Positions 19,152-28,536 of a stretch of 64,000 bases of DNA are shown in pieces. Position 1 is the first letter of the stretch, and every line of letters starts with the position of its first letter. The notes beneath the pieces were generated by a model that ran no database searches, was not told the origin of the DNA, and saw only the letters and a list, made by a program, of their open reading frames with translations. The stretch is from Clostridia bacterium (GTDB lineage Bacteria > Bacillota > Sulfobacillia > SLMV01), in NCBI GenBank assembly GCA_003551215.1, contig PUMD01000133.1, positions 2,494-66,493 of the forward strand. Direction: 5' to 3'. The position numbers and the translations under genes were made by a program.

Positions 19152-19805
19152 GTGAGCACGTTTCCTCAGCCTGATCTTTATCCGACGGAATACGAGGCAA
19201 TGGGTGACGAGGATCTGGTAGAAGTTGCTCGGTCGGGTAGCAAAAGAGCCCTGGATTTCTTGATGCTGAAATACAGACATTTTGTGAAAGCCAAAGCAAG
19301 AAGCTACTTCCTGGTTGGTGCAGATCGCGAGGACATAATCCAGGAAGGGATGATAGGTCTTTACAAGGCCGTACGAGACTTTCGTCCAGAGAAGCTGTCG
19401 TCGTTCAAGGTATTTGCAGAACTGTGCATACAGAGGCAGATCATAACTGCCATAAAGACGGCCACGCGCCAAAAACATATACCGCTGAACTCCTATGTCT
19501 CACTGAATAAACCCATCTATGACGAAGATTCTGATCGCACGCTGATGGATGTTTTAGCCGGAAGTCATATATCCAATCCCGAACAGCTCATTATCTCGCG
19601 CGAGGAGTTCAACCAGATTGAAAAGAGAATGGGCGAGATGCTAAGCGAGCTGGAATGGCAGGTCCTTATGGCTTACCTGGACGGCAAGTCATATCAGGAG
19701 ATTGCCGACCAGATAGGCCGGCACGTCAAATCGGTAGACAACGCTTTACAGAGGGTAAAGCGGAAGCTTGAGCAGTATCTGCTGGAGGCGGAGGACAAAA
19801 GGTAG
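19152..19805 (+). CDS. sigH: Sporulation/transition-state sigma factor SigH
   Basis: Sigma-70 regions 2 and 4 (DIIQEGMIGLYKAVRDF; SYQEIADQIGRHVKSVDNALQR). GTG start after GGAGGAG. Confidence 0.85.
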   Translation: MSTFPQPDLYPTEYEAMGDEDLVEVARSGSKRALDFLMLKYRHFVKAKARSYFLVGADREDIIQEGMIGLYKAVRDFRPEKLSSFKVFAELCIQRQIITAIKTATRQKHIPLNSYVSLNKPIYDEDSDRTLMDVLAGSHISNPEQLIISREEFNQIEKRMGEMLSELEWQVLMAYLDGKSYQEIADQIGRHVKSVDNALQRVKRKLEQYLLEAEDKR

Positions 19806-19975: not shown

Positions 19976-20446
19976 TTACACTACCTGCCCGCCGTTTCTG
20001 CTGATCGCCTGACGCACCCGGGGCAGCTGCGGTCTTGATGTGAATACGATCAGCAGACGCGGCTCGGTTGGTAGGGGGCGGTGGGGGGTTGTCAGACAAT
20101 AAATGGAGGCCAGGGTGGCGGTTATAAGTGCGAAGGAACCTCCCACCGCGAGGTAGGCTGGATATCTGCCGCCTGCGAATAGAGGGGCGAAAAAAGCCAG
20201 AGGAAGGAACCCGGCATGATGAAGATAAAGCAGAGTGATGCCCAGCAGTGCCCCTAGTAGCCCGCCCACGGCTGTTTTTTGCGCTTCACCGCGGCTGAGG
20301 AACAGCTGCTGGGATATCAATCTCTGGGTGTCCTCTGTCGGACCAAGAACCTGTCCGCTGCCCCACTGCTGAGATTCAATCTCCTCAAGCGCGGCGAGTG
20401 CCTGTTCCTCGGTGGCAAAAGTGGCTGCCAGCTTACTCATTTTCAT
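19976..20446 (-). CDS. YflT/general-stress-protein-17M-like domain membrane protein
   Basis: N-terminal KLAATFATEEQALAALEEI resembles the YflT (DUF1269) domain. Followed by two transmembrane helices. GGGAGGA RBS. The 3' part may be over-extended. Confidence 0.4.
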   Translation of the reverse strand: MKMSKLAATFATEEQALAALEEIESQQWGSGQVLGPTEDTQRLISQQLFLSRGEAQKTAVGGLLGALLGITLLYLHHAGFLPLAFFAPLFAGGRYPAYLAVGGSFALITATLASIYCLTTPHRPLPTEPRLLIVFTSRPQLPRVRQAISRNGGQVV

Positions 20447-21656
20447 CCTCCCGTTTTCTAAGAAGTCTCACCAGTTGATTGGTCAGTTGCTCAGGAACCT
20501 GGTCTGGTCCACCTATTACCCAGCCGCGGTTGAATCTGCTGACCAGGTGGGAGGTCGCTTGCGGCTGCAGCTGTCTCAGAAGCCTTTGTGTGGGCTCTGG
20601 TAGGTTGCCCTGTCTGAGCCATAGCAGGGGGCCAGCGTTCCCCCGGTGGGCCAAAGCGGCGGAAACCATCGCCTGCAAAGGACTCTCCTCATCTGCGAAA
20701 ACTGGGCTCAATCCAGGGCCCGAAGCTGCCCATCCCATATCGCGGGGGATTGCATCCAGCCACCAGCGCAGCTGGTCACCGCTGTCGGAGTACATTGCGA
20801 AAGAGGCAGCAAGTTCAGCTGCGTCCTCACCTGGTATTCGCTGAACATGTCCAAAATTGGCCAAGTCCCTGATCGCATCAGGTCCGATCGCGCCGGCAGG
20901 AGCCATAACATATATGAAGGCACCGCGAGGTCTGAGGTCTAACGCGCGCTTGGTTGCTTCAGGTAGCGAATCCTGATGGCTGAAAAGGATGGGCTGTCCC
21001 CTGCGAGCGGCCCAGAAGGCTCCAGTAGCTGCCAGCTGAGGGTCATCGACGGGTACTATAACTGTCTCGCTGCGATGATCACCCAGAAGAATCGAAAGGT
21101 AGTGATCTATTTTCTCGGCTAGTTCTTCTGGTGATGATGCTTTCAACCAGCGGAAACGGAATCCTTCGTCCTGCAGGGTACGTTGCACACCCGACGGAAG
21201 GTCCCCACAAAGCAATACCTGTGCGCCAGCATCACGCAGTATGCCCAGGGGGTTCAAGCGTCTTATCTCTCTCAGTACCAACTCAGGAAGGGGGGCGGAG
21301 GGTATGGGGATTACCGGCGCATCTACTGGTAGAGCGCTCAGCCGTGCAGCAGCAGCTGCGGTCCGCCAGTCATCATCAGGTACCAGTACTACGGCATTGG
21401 GTCTGGCCGAGCCTCCCGTTGCTGGGTATATGGTCTGTGATACGGTCAGCCCTACTGTCAATGGATCATCGCAGGGTATCTGTCGAATAGTCCCGAACTC
21501 CCTTTGGGCTCTGACGGATTGCCTGCTCGCATCTGGATACTGATAGGCAGCGGGAAGCAGGTAAGCGGCAAGAATTGCCGCCAAAAGTAATCCACCGGCA
21601 AGATAACACGCTATTTTCAGCTTGCGTTGCGACTTCTGGTAATCATTCGAGGGCAT
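20433..21656 (-). CDS. Membrane-anchored protein with three CWB2-like cell-wall-binding repeats
   Basis: N-terminal transmembrane anchor. Three repeats of the pattern vvLVpdDd..aAaAarLSA...aPvipi / QPILFS..SLPEATKRALDL...FIYVMAPAGAIGPDAIRDL..VQRIPGEDAAELAA, matching the CWB2 (PF04122-type) consensus. AGGAGGA RBS. Confidence 0.55.
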   Translation of the reverse strand: MPSNDYQKSQRKLKIACYLAGGLLLAAILAAYLLPAAYQYPDASRQSVRAQREFGTIRQIPCDDPLTVGLTVSQTIYPATGGSARPNAVVLVPDDDWRTAAAAARLSALPVDAPVIPIPSAPLPELVLREIRRLNPLGILRDAGAQVLLCGDLPSGVQRTLQDEGFRFRWLKASSPEELAEKIDHYLSILLGDHRSETVIVPVDDPQLAATGAFWAARRGQPILFSHQDSLPEATKRALDLRPRGAFIYVMAPAGAIGPDAIRDLANFGHVQRIPGEDAAELAASFAMYSDSGDQLRWWLDAIPRDMGWAASGPGLSPVFADEESPLQAMVSAALAHRGNAGPLLWLRQGNLPEPTQRLLRQLQPQATSHLVSRFNRGWVIGGPDQVPEQLTNQLVRLLRKREDENE

Positions 21657-21668
21657 AGGGTAATCCTC

Positions 21669-23558
21669 CTAAAATCTATCATACTGCGGCAGTGCGGCTG
21701 CCCAATAGAGACTGAGCGGGTAAGTGGTCAGCAGGGCGAATGCAGCACCAATTGAAGCGCTTCCCCACCAGGCAGTACGTCCCACAACCGGCGGCCAGCT
21801 CAGATACAGGTACTCCAGCAGCCACACTGCAAGAGAAAAGGCCAAAGCTGCTGAGGTCACCATGGACAGGGTTACCGGCCAGCGAGCCCCCAGGTCTTTG
21901 CTGTAGCTGATACTGGAATCCATGCTCGGATCCAGAACAAATATCACCACAGCAGCGGCAACCGCATAGCCGACCATCAGCGACCATATTCCTGGATTAC
22001 CCAGCCAAAATATCGAACCGGTCGTCATAAGCAATGCTGCACCACCGCCCTTGATTACTAGGCGGGTGACTATCATCAGCGCCGAGGTTACCCCCACCAC
22101 CACGACTGCCCCAGCGACGGCCTGAGTAAGGGGCGTCCGACTCGAACTATCAGCCGCTACCAAAGGGCGCTCTCCCCGGTAGCTCAGGTAGTACCCCAGC
22201 AGACCGAGAGGTCCGGTGGTGAGCACCGCCGTCACCCAGGCCAGCCGCTTCACCTGACCCACGGTTCTTCTTCGCATTGTCGAGTGACACCAGGTCCATA
22301 CCCCTCCCAGCCAGCTGGCCGTCATCCACAGTAAAAGGAGGGATTCCAGGCCACTGCTGGCCCGGGATGTTTGCGTCAGATAGGGTCCTGCCGTATTTAT
22401 GTAATCTATGCGAGCCTGCAGGGGCCAGCTGATGATTGCCTCCCCACCTGCGATCCATGTGTAGTTGAAAGGAGCTCCGGCAGAGCTATCCGTCCAGCTT
22501 GGACGTATGCTCCATAGATAAGTCTCCACTGATGGGCAGATGGCTTCAGATTGAGTCAGCAGGGTCGGACCTGCCCATATGTCGGAAAATACCTGAGCAG
22601 AAGCTATCAGGTGCTCCGGGTATTCCGGGTTACCCACCAGATGTACGTGGTCTTTGTGGGGTGTGTTTTCACTGTACCAGCCGAAATGAGTTCCTCTATC
22701 ATAATACCGCGCCATTGCCAGGGCATGCTGCTCCGGGTTACGCCCGGCAACCCTGGTGATCTGTCCGATTTTGCCCAGTTCTTCTACCACCGCCGTACCG
22801 GCTATGTGAAGGGGACTGGCGAGGTATATATTCAATTTCTTATCCCCAAGCTGTTTCTGCAGGCTCTGAAGACGGGAGACCACGTCCTTGCTTGGCCCGT
22901 TGCTGTCTATCGGGTAAACATGATCTGCCGTACGGGACAGCCAGGTAGCCAGAGGTAGCGCATATCTGGAATCCTCACTGCTTACCAGGATGACCCGTTC
23001 GTCATTTACTGTCGAATTCAGCTCCGAAACCAGCTCGTCGACGGCAAGGGCAAGGGGGGGACCTGAGCTGTCCACACACCGAATGCGGAACCTTCTGGCC
23101 AGCTTCGTCCTGATTTGCTGAGAGAACTCGCCGACAAGGATGATCTGCTTTCTCCGTTGTCCGATTCCTCGGGGCGACAGCTGTTTCATCTCGGCGAGCA
23201 CCTCTTTTGAAGGCTCCTCATCTGCGTCCAGAAGCACAAGTCCTGCTCCTACGGGTGGCGCAGTGAGCCGCAAAGCGTAAAGGGCAGCCAGTGGGTCTGC
23301 AGCGGGAGCCACCACCAGCCCGGGGACAGCACCACTGTGGGCGTACCGCACACGGACGGCCTGCAGGCTCAGGTCGGTGATGTTGTCCCCCGATAGTCTC
23401 GTGGTGTGTGCCGTCAGGGGCACAGCATCTTCCGCATAATCGCCTGAAGCAGATCTTCTCATGCACATCACGTGATCATATGTCAGGTAAAAGGGAGTGG
23501 CCAGAAGAACAACTATAAGGCCATACAGAATTATTCTTGCTGCCGTTTTCACCCGCAT
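21669..23558 (-). CDS. Large membrane protein: N-terminal anchor, three CWB2-like repeats, C-terminal roughly 6-TM domain of unknown function
   Basis: Repeats GLVVAPAADPLAALYALRLTAPP.., ERVILVSSEDSRYALPLATWLS.., HLVGNPEYPEHLIASAQVF.. Hydrophobic C-terminal third. Weak RBS; start ATG 23558 or GTG 23561. Confidence 0.5.
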   Translation of the reverse strand: MRVKTAARIILYGLIVVLLATPFYLTYDHVMCMRRSASGDYAEDAVPLTAHTTRLSGDNITDLSLQAVRVRYAHSGAVPGLVVAPAADPLAALYALRLTAPPVGAGLVLLDADEEPSKEVLAEMKQLSPRGIGQRRKQIILVGEFSQQIRTKLARRFRIRCVDSSGPPLALAVDELVSELNSTVNDERVILVSSEDSRYALPLATWLSRTADHVYPIDSNGPSKDVVSRLQSLQKQLGDKKLNIYLASPLHIAGTAVVEELGKIGQITRVAGRNPEQHALAMARYYDRGTHFGWYSENTPHKDHVHLVGNPEYPEHLIASAQVFSDIWAGPTLLTQSEAICPSVETYLWSIRPSWTDSSAGAPFNYTWIAGGEAIISWPLQARIDYINTAGPYLTQTSRASSGLESLLLLWMTASWLGGVWTWCHSTMRRRTVGQVKRLAWVTAVLTTGPLGLLGYYLSYRGERPLVAADSSSRTPLTQAVAGAVVVVGVTSALMIVTRLVIKGGGAALLMTTGSIFWLGNPGIWSLMVGYAVAAAVVIFVLDPSMDSSISYSKDLGARWPVTLSMVTSAALAFSLAVWLLEYLYLSWPPVVGRTAWWGSASIGAAFALLTTYPLSLYWAAALPQYDRF

Positions 23559-23986
23559 CACCCGGGAAACAGTGTTCCCGAAATGACGGATTATATTATC
23601 GGCGGTTAACCTGACTTCTGCTGGTGTTAGCGTAAAGTCTTGGCAGGTAGAGTGAGGTTAGACGTAAAATAAGGACCTCACCCGGCGTTGCAAATGTTGG
23701 GTATGCTGCATTGCAGCTGACAGCATCTGTATTATGTGTTCATCCTCGAGTCCGGCATGGTACACTTAGCTGACTGGACTTGGTGAGGTTCGTTTTTGCC
23801 CAGGCTCATTGTATCATCGAGGTCAGACCCGTGCAGCCTTGCGCCTTGAGATTCAACCAAAAGCGGGTGGACACAAAGGAGATCGACTGTCGCCTGCTGA
23901 ACCTAGCTGATTGCGGACGTCAATGATCATCTTTGGAGTGTCCCCATCGTGGGGGACACCATTTCAGCATATGAGGAGCTGATCAA

Positions 23987-24976
23987 GTGAGCAGGATAGA
24001 GGAATCTATATTTGTGCCTGACCGATTGCGTGCTCGGGTACGGCAGACCATTTACCGCGTGCTGGGCCCGCACCTGGACAAACGACAGGAGCCTCACTGC
24101 GAATACAGCTATGCAATCCAGCCCTGTGATGACAGCAAACTGGTAGTGAGGCAGTTTTACACCGGGACCCTGCAAATACAGGGCAACAGCACAGAACTGT
24201 ACGGCAGACTCCTCAGGGAATTGGACAGACTGCTGGACAGCTGTGAAAAGAATGAGAGTGAAAGCTGCGACAACAGGTTCGCACTATGTCCGTTTCCTCA
24301 TGTGGGCAGCGACGAAGCGGGAAAAGGTGATTACTTCGGACCGCTGGTGGTGGCTGCCTTGTTCGCCGACCGGCAGCAGGCAGAAACGCTGCGAGCCTGG
24401 GGGGTATCTGACTCCAAGAGCATAAGCGATTCACGCTGCCGTGCCCTGTGCCGTCGTATACGGGATCGATTCGAAGAGGTCATAGCGGTGAGAGTGGTGC
24501 TTCCCTCAGAGTACAATGTGCTTTACAGCAGATTCAGTAGCAGTGGGGATAATTTGAACGACCTTTTGGCTGCCTGCCACCTGCAAGTCATAAAGCAGTT
24601 GATCGACCGGACTAACGCCTATGAACAGCCTATTGCCGTCCTGGTGGACAAATTTGCTCGCGATTCGCTTCTTCTCGACCGGCTGAAAGCTGCTGAGTTG
24701 GAGGGGTATGATCTTGAGTCTAAGCTGTCGATTCGACAGATGGTTAGAGCCGAAGAGGATCCGGTGGTTGCAGCGGCGTCGGTTGTGGCGCGGGGCGTCT
24801 TCCTCGAATCACTGCAGGATCTGTCTGATGAGTTCGACATTGAACTTCCCAAGGGTGCTGGAGATCAGACTATTTCCGCGGGTAAGAATCTAACAGAGTC
24901 CTGGGGGGCGGAGATGCTGCAGCAGGTAGCCAAATTACACTTTGCCAACACCGATAGGATACTTGAGGATAGCTGA
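23987..24976 (+). CDS. rnhC: Ribonuclease HIII
   Basis: N-terminal TBP-like domain (FYTGTLQIQG). RNase HII/HIII catalytic motif GSDEAGKGDYFGPLVVAA. GTG start after GAGGAG. Confidence 0.75.
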   Translation: MSRIEESIFVPDRLRARVRQTIYRVLGPHLDKRQEPHCEYSYAIQPCDDSKLVVRQFYTGTLQIQGNSTELYGRLLRELDRLLDSCEKNESESCDNRFALCPFPHVGSDEAGKGDYFGPLVVAALFADRQQAETLRAWGVSDSKSISDSRCRALCRRIRDRFEEVIAVRVVLPSEYNVLYSRFSSSGDNLNDLLAACHLQVIKQLIDRTNAYEQPIAVLVDKFARDSLLLDRLKAAELEGYDLESKLSIRQMVRAEEDPVVAAASVVARGVFLESLQDLSDEFDIELPKGAGDQTISAGKNLTESWGAEMLQQVAKLHFANTDRILEDS

Positions 24977-24994
24977 CTGCGGGAGGGGAGTGCA

Positions 24995-25954
24995 ATGAGC
25001 AAAAAGATGTGGCGTCTTTTGAAAATAATGCATCTGGCAGCCGGCAATGAGAAACTCAAAGCTCCGGAGATGGCGGAGCGTCTGGGAGTATCGGTGCGAA
25101 CTTTTCACCGGGACAGACAACTGCTCGAGGAAGCGGGCCTGGGAGTAGTCTTCGACGGAGAAGGGTACTCTCTTGCCGGGGAGCCCTTTCTTCCCTCGGT
25201 GAAGCTGAGGCGTGACGAAGGCCTGGCGCTGATGCTCACTGTACAGAGTGTTTTGGATGCTGACTCGATCCCCTATTCAGAAAGCCTGCGCGGCGCTTTC
25301 GAGAAGATCGTATCCGGAATTCCTCCACACATGCGCAGAAACATAAGCAGACTGGGTCGCGAGATTCAAATAAGGCAGCAGCCCATGGTGAACATGTCAC
25401 CCTACCAGGAGGCTTTTGACGTGTTACGTGTTGCCATCGAAGAACAACAGGTTGTTCGCGCTGACTACATGGGACGTAGTGATGAGGAACCCCTCAGCAG
25501 AGAAATCGAGCCGTTGGGGATATTCCAAAGATGGCGCGCCTGGTACGTAGTAGCTCACTGTAGGCTGCGCGACGATCTGCGAGTATTCCGTATAGACCGC
25601 ATGTCGAATGTTTCTATGACCGAAGGGGAGTTTGTGCCCCGGAGGGATTTTGATCTCGATCGTTTCCTGCAGGAAGCCTGGCTCGTGGAACACGGAGATG
25701 TTCAGGAGGTGCGCATACGGTTCAGCGGAGAGGCCGCCCGGCTGGTAAGAGAGCTCACCTGGCATCCCTCGCAGCGGATAGAAGAGCATTCAGAAGATAG
25801 CCTGATTATGGTCTTCTGCACCGGAGGCAAAAGAGAGGTGGCTGACTGGGTCATGAGTTATGGTTCAAAAGCAGAAGTGCTAGAACCTCCCAGTCTTCGT
25901 TGCCTTGTGGCGCAAAAATCTGCCGAGATATCGTCCGTCTACAAGAGTGATTAA
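24995..25954 (+). CDS. WYL-domain transcriptional regulator (HTH-WYL-WCX, PafBC/YafY-like)
   Basis: N-terminal HTH (MAERLGVSVRTFHRDRQLLEEAG). WYL core (WYVVAHCRLRDDLRVFRIDRM). C-terminal WCX-like region. GGGAGGGGAG RBS. Lies 18 nt after rnhC. Confidence 0.7.
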   Translation: MSKKMWRLLKIMHLAAGNEKLKAPEMAERLGVSVRTFHRDRQLLEEAGLGVVFDGEGYSLAGEPFLPSVKLRRDEGLALMLTVQSVLDADSIPYSESLRGAFEKIVSGIPPHMRRNISRLGREIQIRQQPMVNMSPYQEAFDVLRVAIEEQQVVRADYMGRSDEEPLSREIEPLGIFQRWRAWYVVAHCRLRDDLRVFRIDRMSNVSMTEGEFVPRRDFDLDRFLQEAWLVEHGDVQEVRIRFSGEAARLVRELTWHPSQRIEEHSEDSLIMVFCTGGKREVADWVMSYGSKAEVLEPPSLRCLVAQKSAEISSVYKSD

Positions 25955-26392
25955 GACTGACAAACAACTGACTCCCTGCCGCATGAACCCCTTTCATGAT
26001 GTGGCGCATTCTGATGAGCAGGTTAGGAATCACCTTGATGGCTGGTGTCCTGTCAGTCGCCTTTGCAGCTTCCTGGATTCCCACTAATACGACCTGTGGA
26101 AGGAATGCTGTCGCGTCGGAAGGATATTGGTTCCACCATATAGAAAACAAATAGTACCAAGCACGCAAATTCAATGAAGCAGTATCCGGTTGCATCTGGT
26201 CTGCGCTCGGACACACATCGGAGTTCACCTATTCAGAAAAACTCGCCCAATTAGCAAGATTGATTCAATGTCAGCACATATCGCAGATCTGTTGTCTATA
26301 CACCCACAGCACAATTCAGCCGTATCAGCCGTCTGCGCTCCTGTTGTATCGATGGTGTTGATTTTTGCATTGAGGAGTGGGGGAAGGATCAT

Positions 26393-27112
26393 ATGTTTTC
26401 CTCAGGCAGCATTGCCAGGTGGGCAAAAATAATGCTGGTCGGGCTTCTGTTTGGCCTGGTTATTTGGTATTGTGCGCCTCCCCTTATGCTCTGGTTTGTA
26501 CCCACTCGGGTTCCCGAAGAAATAGCCAGACACTCCGAGGAACAGCTGCCAGACTCCTTCAACAAGATATCAAGGCATCAGGCGGTCAGTCCACTGCAGT
26601 GGAGGGTAACCCACATAGGACATTTTGCCGATGAATTGCATCCCCGCTATCAGGTGGTGTATCTTCAGAACCGTCTGACCGGCAGGGCAGAGGTCTCCGT
26701 CGATTACGTCCAGGGGAGACATCAGCTTTTTCCCTGGCTACAGCCGGTTTCATTTACTGCAGCCTTCTTTCTGTTTATATACCTGGCTGCCCCCAGATTA
26801 CTGGGGCAGCCCTGTCCACACTGCGGCAGCAAACCCTTTTCACTCATCAGTGAAGAGCCGCTGAAACAGGAACCTGGTCCAGCGTTTGCTACTTACCGGG
26901 GCCACTACAGGTGTTCAAAGTGTGGGCTGAACAAGATAACGGTGTACACTGGTTCACGCAAGAGAAATATCATGATGTCCGGGGATCTTGTGCGGGAAAT
27001 GGGTTTCGGGTCGTTGTTTTATGATGAGTCAGATGAGGAAGACCTCTCAGCTTGGGGGCACATTAGCTGGTTGCGAAAGAGTGAAGACGAGGAGTGGTTT
27101 GAGGACTCCTGA
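26393..27112 (+). CDS. Hypothetical membrane protein with a cytoplasmic zinc ribbon and acidic C-terminal tail
   Basis: Two transmembrane segments. CPHCGS...CSKCG zinc-ribbon pair. Tail DESDEEDLSAW...EDEEWFEDS. RBS GGGGGAAGGA. No family recognised. Confidence 0.4.
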   Translation: MFSSGSIARWAKIMLVGLLFGLVIWYCAPPLMLWFVPTRVPEEIARHSEEQLPDSFNKISRHQAVSPLQWRVTHIGHFADELHPRYQVVYLQNRLTGRAEVSVDYVQGRHQLFPWLQPVSFTAAFFLFIYLAAPRLLGQPCPHCGSKPFSLISEEPLKQEPGPAFATYRGHYRCSKCGLNKITVYTGSRKRNIMMSGDLVREMGFGSLFYDESDEEDLSAWGHISWLRKSEDEEWFEDS

Positions 27113-27231: not shown

Positions 27232-28002
27232 TCAATCTTTTTTGAGCAGTTTTTCAAGCACCTGGCTGACCATGGCGCGTCGGAAGCTGGGTATGTCAAA
27301 CTCCTCTGCGAGAGCCTCGGTGGCCTCCTCGTGTGATTTTTGCGCGATCAGCTGCCTGCTGCGCTCGTTGAACCTGCGTAAAAACTCACCCTGCTGTGCC
27401 AACAGCTCTTTTCCTCCCGGCTTACCATGTCCGGGAATTACGTACTCCACATCATATTCCAGCAGGTTTTGCAGGGTGGAGATCCAGAGATCTATGTCTG
27501 CGTCAAGCATGAAAGGGAAGCGTCCTGAAAAGACCAGGTCGCTTACTATCAGAACTGATCTTTGCGGGATATGCACCACGGTTGTTCCCGGAGCATGGCC
27601 ACCCACTTCAATCACTTCCAAGGTAATGTCCGAAAAACGAAGTGACAACTCATTGTCAAAGGTGATATCCGGAAGTGGTAGCGGTATATCCTGGTCAACG
27701 AGTTCTTTCCAGCTTTCTTCAAGGCGTTCTTTCATCAAGTTGTAAGTGGTTTTTGTAGACATGGTAGGGACATCAAAGGCCTGATTACCGAAAGTATGAT
27801 CCGCATGATAGTGCGTGTTTATGAGCATGTAGATGGGTTTCGCCGTGCTGGCGGATATGTGTCCGAACAGCAGTTCACCGTCGGCCGGTGTTCGCATCGT
27901 ATCCACAACCACGGTTCCTGTGTCTGTGGAGATGAATGCTGAGTTGACCGTCTCTTCTGCGTCGCTGACCATAAATACCCCGTCGGTGACTTTCATTTTC
28001 AT
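27232..28002 (-). CDS. MBL-fold metallo-hydrolase
   Basis: HYHADHTFGN (HxHxDH) motif and downstream His/Asp ligands. GGGAGGA RBS before ATGAAAATG. Confidence 0.65.
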   Translation of the reverse strand: MKMKVTDGVFMVSDAEETVNSAFISTDTGTVVVDTMRTPADGELLFGHISASTAKPIYMLINTHYHADHTFGNQAFDVPTMSTKTTYNLMKERLEESWKELVDQDIPLPLPDITFDNELSLRFSDITLEVIEVGGHAPGTTVVHIPQRSVLIVSDLVFSGRFPFMLDADIDLWISTLQNLLEYDVEYVIPGHGKPGGKELLAQQGEFLRRFNERSRQLIAQKSHEEATEALAEEFDIPSFRRAMVSQVLEKLLKKD

Positions 28003-28239
28003 TCCTCCCGCATACAGGATTTCTGACGGCATGCCGAATCGGTCGCACGTATTATCCTATTCTCGAAGCGAAGTCGAAAACCTGTATATGTTCTCACCTG
28101 GTGTCAGATCAAGGCTTGAGCAGCTTTATCTGGCCGATGAGACCGGATTTGCTTGATTTTTATGTTAGATGTGCTGGAGGATTTCCAGCATAGCGGCTTG
28201 ACACACAAACCATCATATCTCATGGAGGAGGTGAGCTAC

Positions 28240-28536
28240 TTGACCACCGGAACCAAGCTCCATCAGACCATCAGCCAGCTGAAGGCTGCAGCCGGTAACC
28301 TGCAGAGTTTCGCTCTGGATACAGATGATCCGCAGGCGAAGCAGATGTTCACCAGTGCATCCCAGCAGCTGGATAAGATAGTCGATCAGGTGAGTGCCCG
28401 CACCAACTATGTGGAGCAGCAGGAACCAGCGTACAAGATGACCCAGATGGCTCAGTCTGCTCAGCAGCAGAATCAGGGACAAGGCCAGGGACAGGGCCAG
28501 CGGCAAGGACGACCAAGACAGAATAGGCGCCGCTGA
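28240..28536 (+). CDS. DUF1657-family small protein (sporulation-associated) with a Gln/Gly-repeat tail
   Basis: MTTGTKLHQTISQLKAAAGNLQSFALDTDDPQAKQMF...QEPAY matches the DUF1657 pattern. TTG start 7 nt after GGAGGAGGTGA. Tail QGQGQGQGQRQGRPRQNRRR. Confidence 0.5.
   Translation: MTTGTKLHQTISQLKAAAGNLQSFALDTDDPQAKQMFTSASQQLDKIVDQVSARTNYVEQQEPAYKMTQMAQSAQQQNQGQGQGQGQRQGRPRQNRRR

Follow-up and report, generated by a model that had tools for sequence, protein, structure and literature searches.

A predicted rnhC-WYL operon in a small clade of uncultured Clostridia/Bacillota and its possible regulatory role

Described WYL regulators and the rnhC-WYL locus

RNase HIII is the main enzyme of Bacillota for dealing with R-loops and for the removal of primers. 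No regulator dedicated to this enzyme is known to us, nor any dedicated regulator gene adjoining rnhC in the model Bacillota. A search of the accessible literature found no paper joining WYL proteins with RNase HIII, rnhC or ribonuclease H in a regulatory sense.

DriD of Caulobacter crescentus is a homodimeric activator of an SOS-independent damage response, with didA and other damage genes as its known targets. It shares the three-domain HTH-WYL-WCX architecture with the regulator described here, aligns with it from end to end and is likewise encoded by a single gene, while most of its core ssDNA-contact residues are retained. However, the two proteins are only about 25-30% identical and have different recognition helices, R176, K202 and Y240 of DriD are replaced here, and no RNase H is encoded alongside DriD. 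PafBC, an ssDNA sensor and the top profile match among PDB entries (6sj9, 3.6e-26), shares an operon with an enzyme gene, pafA, as the present regulator does with rnhC, but is a heterodimer or a fusion of two HTH-WYL-WCX chains instead of a single chain, and acts by sigma adaptation at RecA-NDp promoters, a promoter motif that is not recognisable here. CapW and BrxR, which are WYL proteins repressing the CBASS and BREX defence operons, also have the HTH-WYL-WCX architecture and control their adjacent operon locally, as is proposed for the present regulator. In contrast to it, their genes lie upstream of the targets or diverge from them, and the proteins recognise a clear palindrome of ~20-30 bp, whereas no shared palindrome was found here; their similarity to the regulator is much weaker (2.6e-5 and 6.5e-4, respectively), and no defence genes are present at the locus. 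Regulators of the CapW/BrxR type have ssDNA as ligand (PMC11662680).

The locus belongs to a 64-kb stretch of DNA which is referred to as the window (Table 1). The pairing of rnhC with the WYL gene marks a small clade of uncultured Clostridia/Bacillota MAGs.

Table 1. Features at and around the rnhC-WYL locus, with positions counted in the window
Feature	Position	Strand	Description
Upstream spacer	23562-23986	.	425 nt, between divergent 630-aa membrane-protein gene and rnhC; 50.4% GC
Perfect 8-bp palindrome GTGTCCCC-N6-GGGGACAC	23938-23959	+	28-49 nt 5' of rnhC start
rnhC	23987-24976	+	329 aa, GTG start; predicted canonical RNase HIII with N-terminal TBP-like domain and RNase HII-fold catalytic domain
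Intercistronic spacer	24977-24994	+	18 nt, Shine-Dalgarno GGGAGGGGAG for WYL gene
WYL regulator gene	24995-25954	+	319 aa, ATG start; HTH_11-WYL-WCX transcription factor, PafBC/DriD (YafY) type by profile
Downstream spacer	25955-26392	.	438 nt, 48.2% GC, no recognisable content
Orphan-family membrane protein (zinc-ribbon gene)	26393-27112	+	TM1, PepSY/cystatin-like ectodomain, TM2, cytoplasmic CPxC...CxxC zinc ribbon, acidic tail
Metallo-beta-lactamase-fold (MBL) gene	27232-28032	-	Convergent; synteny anchor

RNase HIII and the WYL regulator

As judged by its sequence and structural model, the rnhC product is a catalytically intact canonical RNase HIII, translated from a gene with the ribosome-binding site GAGGAG 8 nt 5' of its start. 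Residues 106-322 match the Pfam domain RNase_HII (PF01351; 4.6e-30) with the full model covered, and the DEDE tetrad (D109, E110, D221 and E256), which aligns with D97, E98, D202 and E232 of the Bst enzyme, is invariant in a 21-sequence alignment. A phmmer comparison with Bst RNase HIII (2d0a) gave 1.7e-30, while the NCBIfam rnhC model TIGR00716 was matched at 154.7 bits, 6.5 bits short of a cut-off (161.2) which is an annotation threshold and no biological feature; two orthologues (P0041 and P0046) bear the NCBI name 'ribonuclease HIII'. The AF2 model (pLDDT 90.8) has the Bst RNase HIII structures 3asm and 2d0a as its best Foldseek matches (E 2e-21, full length), in alignments of 345-347 columns spanning the N-terminal and catalytic domains. 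The N-terminal domain is modelled as beta-alpha-beta4-alpha with a pLDDT of about 90 and aligns to homologues bearing PF11858; in a Pfam search the window protein itself gave no match to PF11858, and a weak match to the related RnlA N-domain instead. The protein has the two-domain fold, the DEDE active site and the GKG/DYFGP motifs in common with Bacillus/Geobacillus RNase HIII (PDB 2D0A, 3ASM), but is only ~26% identical to these structures and has an N-terminal domain lying beyond the detection of Pfam PF11858.

The adjoining gene encodes a protein which the first-pass annotation had called an HTH-WYL-WCX regulator, and all three Pfam domains are indeed matched: HTH_11 (27.6 bits, residues 7-57; cut-off 25), WYL (75.3 bits, residues 139-207) and WCX (66.6 bits, residues 236-308). 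By its profile, the regulator belongs to the ssDNA-sensing PafBC/DriD type, not to the defence-repressor type, as it lies ~20 orders of magnitude nearer to PafBC and DriD (1e-23 for the latter) than to CapW and BrxR. Residues 3-311 align with residues 8-323 of DriD (E 5e-20; structures 9pfq and 8tp8), on which the ssDNA-contact residues listed in PMC9186387 were mapped. The DriD contacts Y168, S172, R178, Y192, R204, W206 and R207 correspond to Y158, S162, R169, Y184, R196, F198 and R199, where only S162 is not invariant in the clade. Seven of the 11 mapped contacts are thus kept, with R280 additionally in the window regulator only, while the other three are replaced (R176 by L167, K202 by D194 and Y240 by E232). 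This pattern is compatible with nucleic-acid binding, as suggested earlier, and is in itself no proof of ligand identity. Encoding by a single gene would imply a regulator of the homodimer type. Its recognition helix, RTFHRDR (R35-R41), is identical clade-wide.

Conservation of the pair and its variable flanks

The 18-nt separation and the strong ribosome-binding site of the regulator gene, both pointed out in the first-pass annotation, were verified at their exact coordinates, with the GGAGG core of GGGAGGGGAG ending 8 nt 5' of the regulator ATG, and no terminator was found in the 18-nt spacer. The linkage of the two genes, for which a comparison of gene neighbourhoods across genomes had been proposed, extends to the relatives as well. 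When WYL lineages are counted as distinct at <90% mutual identity and only those with upstream DNA are taken in, rnhC lies immediately 5' of the WYL gene in 12/12 lineages, under differing flanks. A genome scan gave only seven loci and a metagenome scan five, the sampling being the extent of public data. The junction varies across orthologues between 14 nt of overlap and a gap of 38 nt (-14 to +38 nt), and in four lineages the rnhC stop and WYL start codons overlap, which implies co-translation. The two genes are predicted to form a conserved operon, often translationally coupled.

The pair has been kept despite insertions and losses on both of its flanks, and none has occurred between the two genes. 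Its 5' flank carries either membrane-protein/ArsR genes or ABC transporter/tRNA synthetase genes, while on its 3' flank are found the MBL gene directly, as in most relatives, or Fer4-SucCD-POR, the zinc-ribbon gene or DUF4870. Clade orthologues are 46-59% identical for the WYL protein and 37-46% for RNase HIII. Neither of the nearest outgroup proteins is paired: the RNase HIII gene P0049 (36% identity) lacks a WYL gene beside it, and the WYL gene P0016 (33% identity) lacks an RNase H gene.

Downstream of the pair, the long spacer had been described as unusually AT-rich, which is overstated: its GC content lies in the 3rd percentile for 438-nt windows (mean 54.4%, sd 3.0) and is close to that of the upstream spacer, as for mildly GC-poor intergenic DNA. 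An Rfam scan of this spacer gave no match at E<=1, its five ORFs gave no Pfam match, and its RNA fold was no better than shuffles (z-scores +2.4 and +0.7). Searches of the spacer found no repeats, no similarity to related loci or to the remaining window and no remnant of the N-terminal extension of the zinc-ribbon homologues. The zinc-ribbon protein beyond it has the features first ascribed to it, namely two hydrophobic segments (at about 10-37 and 115-137), CPHC...CSKC and an acidic tail. Its suggested role as a target or partner finds no counterpart among the relatives, as the gene is missing from every related rnhC-WYL locus, with another gene (DUF4870) holding its position in the closest relative, and the nearest homologue has unrelated surroundings, on a contig of 59% GC from the same sample. 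A conserved operon partner from this tiny orphan family was accordingly rejected, and a comparison of the protein with phage sequences gave no match. The spacer and the zinc-ribbon gene are a separate lineage-specific insertion at a variable site, outside the rnhC-WYL module.

Possible control of rnhC and alternative readings

The operon promoter is presumably located within the upstream spacer, on the + strand of which no sigma-70-like site was found. A decayed ArsR-family remnant is present there at 23691-23750 on the minus strand (20 aa, 55% identity, E 2.5e-4), and the matching ArsR/HTH_5 gene is intact in the loci L002, L013 and L020. The palindrome close to the rnhC start (Table 1) may serve as a protein-binding site or form a 5'-UTR hairpin; it is lineage-specific, being not conserved in the rnhC upstream regions of the other lineages. 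It is the sole exact copy in the window, where a repeated site was rejected as no second convincing copy exists within 64 kb; an exceptional RNA hairpin was rejected as well, since the hairpin, though present in the fold, lies in a region with a z-score of only -0.96. An operator search upstream of rnhC, as proposed in the first-pass annotation, was carried out by visual comparison, MAFFT of two sub-clades, dyads (k=4-6, spacer 0-16) and (l,d) motifs (7,0; 8,1; 10,2). It returned only lineage-specific palindromes and, in the 160-200 nt 5' of rnhC, no shared motif above shuffled controls, the power of the search being low with just 9-11 diverged sequences (one per lineage). A GACAC/GTGTC theme in the window, L013 and L010 was dropped, as its orientation and spacing differ between lineages. 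The palindrome TGACA-N6-TGTCA of L013 and L020 may belong to the adjacent ArsR gene.

The preferred reading, to which we give about even credence, is that the regulator is ssDNA-responsive, is co-expressed with the RNase HIII gene and, as we infer, probably controls rnhC. By analogy with Bacillus subtilis, RNase HIII would remove R-loops and the RNA of Okazaki primers, and short ssDNA would build up when replication or hybrid removal fails. Binding of this ssDNA by the WYL/WCX module may switch the HTH domains to a DNA-binding, probably activating, state, in which the regulator would boost the transcription of its own operon, so that the supply of RNase HIII would track the ssDNA/hybrid load; genes elsewhere in the genome may be controlled as well. 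A bolder version, which is speculative and rather unlikely, would make the WYL factor the first regulator dedicated to a bacterial RNase H. It would sense the ssDNA of R-loops or of Okazaki primers left unprocessed, or perhaps what hybrid cleavage yields, and its feedback on RNase HIII synthesis would constitute a self-contained 'hybrid-load' homeostat distinct from SOS/LexA.

It is possible, if on the doubtful side, that the two genes are co-transcribed while rnhC is no regulatory target, the WYL protein being a global PafBC/DriD-like DNA-damage regulator with its targets elsewhere and the shared mRNA providing basal co-expression only. The invariant recognition helix leads to the expectation of a conserved operator site, none of which was found 5' of rnhC, and the closest characterised relatives of the regulator are global activators; the window palindrome, having no second convincing copy in 64 kb, is uninformative on targets. 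PafBC itself offers a precedent, as it is co-transcribed with pafA with little functional connection between them. On the other hand, the adjacency is strict in all 12 lineages, overlaps included, and persists through local rearrangements, the low power of the operator search weakens the argument from the missing site, and control of adjacent genes is described for many characterised WYL regulators (e.g. CapW, BrxR and SiwR).

Inherited gene order without functional meaning, in a small clade with a long syntenic backbone, is an improbable explanation of the adjacency. All loci come from one MAG lineage, and the order Thy1-SpoU-sigma...MBL-DUF1657-PrsA-ComEA-DUF401-RecD2 is likewise common to the window and its relatives, so that part of the conservation of the pair is simple descent. 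However, the proteins have diverged down to 37-59% identity, indels have accumulated on both flanks with none between the two genes, and overlapping stop and start codons are found in four lineages.

That the WYL protein mainly binds RNase HIII and, for example, guides it to ssDNA/hybrid sites or gates the enzyme, with coupling serving matched stoichiometry, is very unlikely. An overlapping or very short junction in most lineages and the better conservation of the WYL protein than of the enzyme would fit such a role, but the protein has the complete HTH-WYL-WCX architecture of a transcription factor with an invariant recognition helix, and neither fusion proteins nor other hints of contact were seen.

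That the pair is a defence module against phages, built on a nuclease under WYL control, is hardly credible, even though WYL regulators often accompany defence systems and the generic 'WYL' (Cas-associated) models of PADLOC match the regulator: PADLOC gave no match for rnhC, the zinc-ribbon protein, the MBL or the two upstream proteins, the enzyme is of the canonical housekeeping type, the similarity to CapW/BrxR is weak, and the locus is part of the core chromosome and not of a mobile island, surrounded by housekeeping genes (Thy1, SpoU, sigma factor, PrsA, ComEA and RecD2). A mobile origin was rejected likewise; no relatives were found on viral contigs, and the plasmid matches were only generic WYL factors, about 28-30% identical.

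The association described here is a modest, clade-restricted one between two known components. Its impact is limited: it is confined to about a dozen uncultured lineages, both components are ordinary members of their families, and the regulatory link between them is putative. The rnhC-WYL operon offers the testable hypothesis that hybrid removal can be under ssDNA-responsive control, which, if true, would extend the outputs known for the growing WYL damage-regulator family by one more.

Organisation and conservation of the rnhC-WYL pair

The window encodes an RNase HIII (rnhC), an HTH-WYL-WCX regulator and a zinc-ribbon membrane protein, whose three ORFs were confirmed exactly as placed by the first-pass annotation, as was the 18-nt gap between rnhC and the WYL gene, which holds GGGAGGGGAG and in which no terminator-like site was found. 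The WYL orthologues form a compact group (51–59% identity), and among 5.8 billion proteins searched the next relative falls sharply to 33%.

Features of the rnhC-WYL locus and its surroundings (window positions)
Feature	Position	Strand	Description
Sigma-70 family factor	19152-19793	+	r2 and r4_2; 93% identical to its counterpart in locus L002
407-aa protein gene	20433-21656	-	Paralogue of the adjacent 630-aa protein
630-aa protein gene	21669-23561	-	C-terminal multi-TM region
Upstream spacer	23562-23986		425 nt, 50.4% GC
ArsR/SmtB-family (HTH_5) remnant	23691-23750	-	20-aa C-terminus; 55% identity, E 2.5e-4
Palindrome	23938-23959		GTGTCCCC-N6-GGGGACAC
rnhC	23987-24976	+	329 aa; putative GTG start, GAGGAG 8 nt upstream
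Alternative rnhC start	24014	+	Second in-frame GTG, preceded by AGAGGAA
WYL regulator	24995-25954	+	319 aa; HTH_11, WYL and WCX matches, each over cut-off
Downstream spacer	25955-26392		438 nt, 48.2% GC
Zinc-ribbon protein	26393-27112	+	239 aa; two hydrophobic helices, CPHC...CSKC, acidic tail
DUF1657 protein	28153-28536	+	Gln/Gly/Arg-rich low-complexity tail QQQNQGQGQGQGQRQGRPRQNRRR

Loci were drawn from exact protein look-up, GTDB representative genomes, JGI metagenomes and an RNase HIII-side search, and clustering of the WYL proteins at 90% identity gave 12 distinct lineages with upstream DNA. Conservation in relatives was the test that the annotation had set for its own proposal of linkage, and rnhC lies immediately upstream of the WYL gene on the same strand in 12 of the 12, with junctions of +18, +34, -11, -1, +29/+38, +5, +4, +19, +4, -14, -14 and +4 nt. 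Two kinds of upstream flank occur: one has two CWB2-like or membrane-protein genes, joined in some lineages by an ArsR-family gene, and the other has genes for an ABC transporter and a tRNA synthetase. Downstream, a convergent metallo-beta-lactamase-fold gene (MBL) follows directly or behind an inserted Fer4-SucCD-POR cluster, and further variants are the zinc-ribbon gene (window only) and a DUF4870 gene in L016, the window's closest relative. Genes have been inserted and lost on either side of the pair and never within it in the lineages compared; that the two genes stay together through inherited synteny alone is a less likely explanation.

The next outward RNase HIII (P0049, 36% identity) lies beside no WYL gene, and the next outward WYL protein (P0016, 33%) adjoins DUF2130 and HIRAN genes and has no RNase H neighbour; the rnhC-WYL association defines the clade. 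The MAGs that supplied the loci are all labelled Clostridia bacterium or Bacillota bacterium. At the P0016 locus (L007 8001-11677), the genes that come after the WYL gene encode a 53-aa protein, a DUF2130 protein, a product with weak likeness to DnaJ and a protein with a HIRAN domain, a type of domain that binds 3' DNA ends. These surroundings are possibly another DNA-damage-type WYL neighbourhood, here without RNase H.

The nuclease and the regulator

The rnhC product covers the Pfam RNase_HII model in full (4.6e-30), and its top NCBIfam match is rnhC TIGR00716 (154.7 bits, 6.5 bits under the curated cut-off). It aligns with the RNase HIII of Geobacillus stearothermophilus (2d0a; 1.7e-30), whose catalytic residues D97, E98, D202 and E232 correspond to D109, E110, D221 and E256; none of these four varies across the aligned set of 21 relatives, which takes in canonical RNase HIII with the Pfam N-terminal domain PF11858. 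The confident AlphaFold2 model built from this alignment (pLDDT 90.8) has full-length Bst RNase HIII as its best Foldseek match in the PDB (E 2e-21, ~345 columns aligned), followed by the RNase H3 structures of Thermovibrio and Aquifex, with RNase HII entries ranked below these. The protein is a canonical RNase HIII, apparently active, whose N-terminal domain has diverged somewhat. Position 23987 was retained as its start over 24014, as protein alignments reach residue 1; a nucleotide block, TAGAGGAA(A/T)C..T.TTT, is kept in loci L013 and L020.

A profile of 15 regulator orthologues matches PafBC (3.6e-26) and DriD, the Caulobacter crescentus activator (1e-23), in the PDB, and only weakly the defence repressors CapW (2.6e-5) and BrxR (6.5e-4). 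The alignment with DriD runs end to end, and the published ssDNA-contacting residues of DriD (PMC9186387) were transferred through it, 11 being compared. Y168, R178, Y192, R204 and R207 are kept as the clade-invariant Y158, R169, Y184, R196 and R199, and the aromatic W206 is represented by an equally invariant F198; S172 is kept as S162 and R288 as the clade-variable R280, while R176, K202 and Y240 are replaced by L167, D194 and E232. These comparisons make the regulator a DriD-like HTH-WYL-WCX factor of a single chain; its ligand pocket looks fit to bind a nucleic acid, which by analogy would most likely be ssDNA.

Flanking sequences and genomic setting

The downstream spacer, described in the first-pass annotation as unusually AT-rich, is mildly GC-poor (window mean 54.4%, sd 3.0 in 438-nt windows; 3rd percentile) but not strikingly AT-rich, and the upstream spacer is similar. 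It gave no Rfam match, no Pfam match among its ORFs, no repeats, no similarity to related loci, and RNA folding on both strands no better than that of shuffled sequence. The zinc-ribbon protein beyond it had been proposed as a target or partner of the pair, which the data do not bear out, as the gene is absent from all the related loci compared and its family showed no connection to WYL or RNase H. Its zinc-ribbon matches are all sub-threshold, and a search of 1.84 billion cluster representatives gave just nine relatives; the family shares WYMPxxVP and SPLHWRV motifs in the inter-TM loop and a CPxC...CxxCG ribbon C-terminal to TM2, followed by an acidic REREW-type tail. The nearest homologue (32% identity; L031 1343-2170), on a different contig (59% GC) of the same sample, SRR490150, lies among Peptidase_M42, NTPase_1 and TldD/PmbA genes, and has one more TM helix than the window copy, at its N-terminus. 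The gene is a lineage-specific insertion, and its site holds a different gene in L016, where a DUF4870 membrane-protein gene (970-1362) follows the WYL gene (product 77% identical to the window's) after a ~290-nt spacer; the position just 3' of the WYL gene looks like an insertion hot spot for small membrane-protein genes.

The wider gene order (Thy1, SpoU, sigma factor, the locus, MBL, DUF1657, PrsA, ComEA, DUF401, RecD2) is syntenic with relatives and housekeeping in character. Neither the nuclease nor its neighbours drew a PADLOC hit, no relatives of the pair were found on viral contigs, and plasmid matches are generic WYL factors only (~28–30% identity). A defence or mobile module was rejected on the synteny, PADLOC, viral and plasmid results, a defence role is less likely, and the pair is a chromosomal operon. 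Among the surrounding genes, the sigma-70 family factor is unusually constrained, as neighbouring proteins reach only 45–65% identity, and the DUF1657 protein has a core 85–89% identical in relatives, with adjoining genes conserved. The 630-aa protein is similar to the 407-aa protein over its residues ~100-388 (23–29% identity in relatives); the sole family match of these paralogues is sub-threshold, to CWB2 cell-wall-binding repeats, and both genes are retained side by side in synteny class A.

Proposed control of the operon

The recognition helix of the regulator (R35-T-F-H-R-D-R41) is invariant throughout the clade, so a conserved operator was expected. Upstream of rnhC, one of the places where the annotation had suggested looking for an operator, no shared site rose above shuffled controls in 9–11 lineages, whether by alignment or by dyad and (l,d)-motif searches. 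Individual lineages carry palindromes 30–85 nt upstream of the rnhC start that differ in sequence, orientation and spacing; that of the window recurs nowhere convincingly in the 64 kb, and that of L013 and L020 may serve the divergent ArsR gene. Sub-clade B has a plausible sigma-A promoter candidate (TTGTCN-17-NANAAT) conserved ~30 nt ahead of the start; the + strand of the window showed no sigma-70-like site ahead of rnhC. The upstream spacer there is long because this lineage lost the ArsR/SmtB-family gene, which L002, L013 and L020 keep whole and in divergent orientation to rnhC.

The locus comprises two intact genes of known families in a tight, conserved bicistron. By its likeness to DriD, PafBC and CapW, the regulator would sense ssDNA, and it probably activates transcription, as it is much nearer in sequence to activators. 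In the simplest model it would act on its own promoter, and RNase HIII output would track ssDNA or hybrid stress. We give this autoregulation only an even chance, as no shared operator was found, the palindromes differ between lineages, and a promoter candidate is seen in sub-clade B and not in the window. The main alternative, given a lower probability, is that the regulator travels in the rnhC transcript yet controls other genes; PafBC, encoded in the pafA operon while regulating other genes, is a precedent. A role of the regulator as a physical partner of the nuclease is less likely.

In arrangement, the closest likeness is to the locally acting WYL regulators CapW, BrxR and SiwR, and in sequence the regulator is closest to DriD and PafBC. 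Taken singly, each protein is an ordinary member of a known family; what is new is that the two are strictly associated in one operon, an arrangement that was not found in the searchable literature. The locus thus offers a new pairing of known parts, restricted to one clade and joined by a putative regulatory link.
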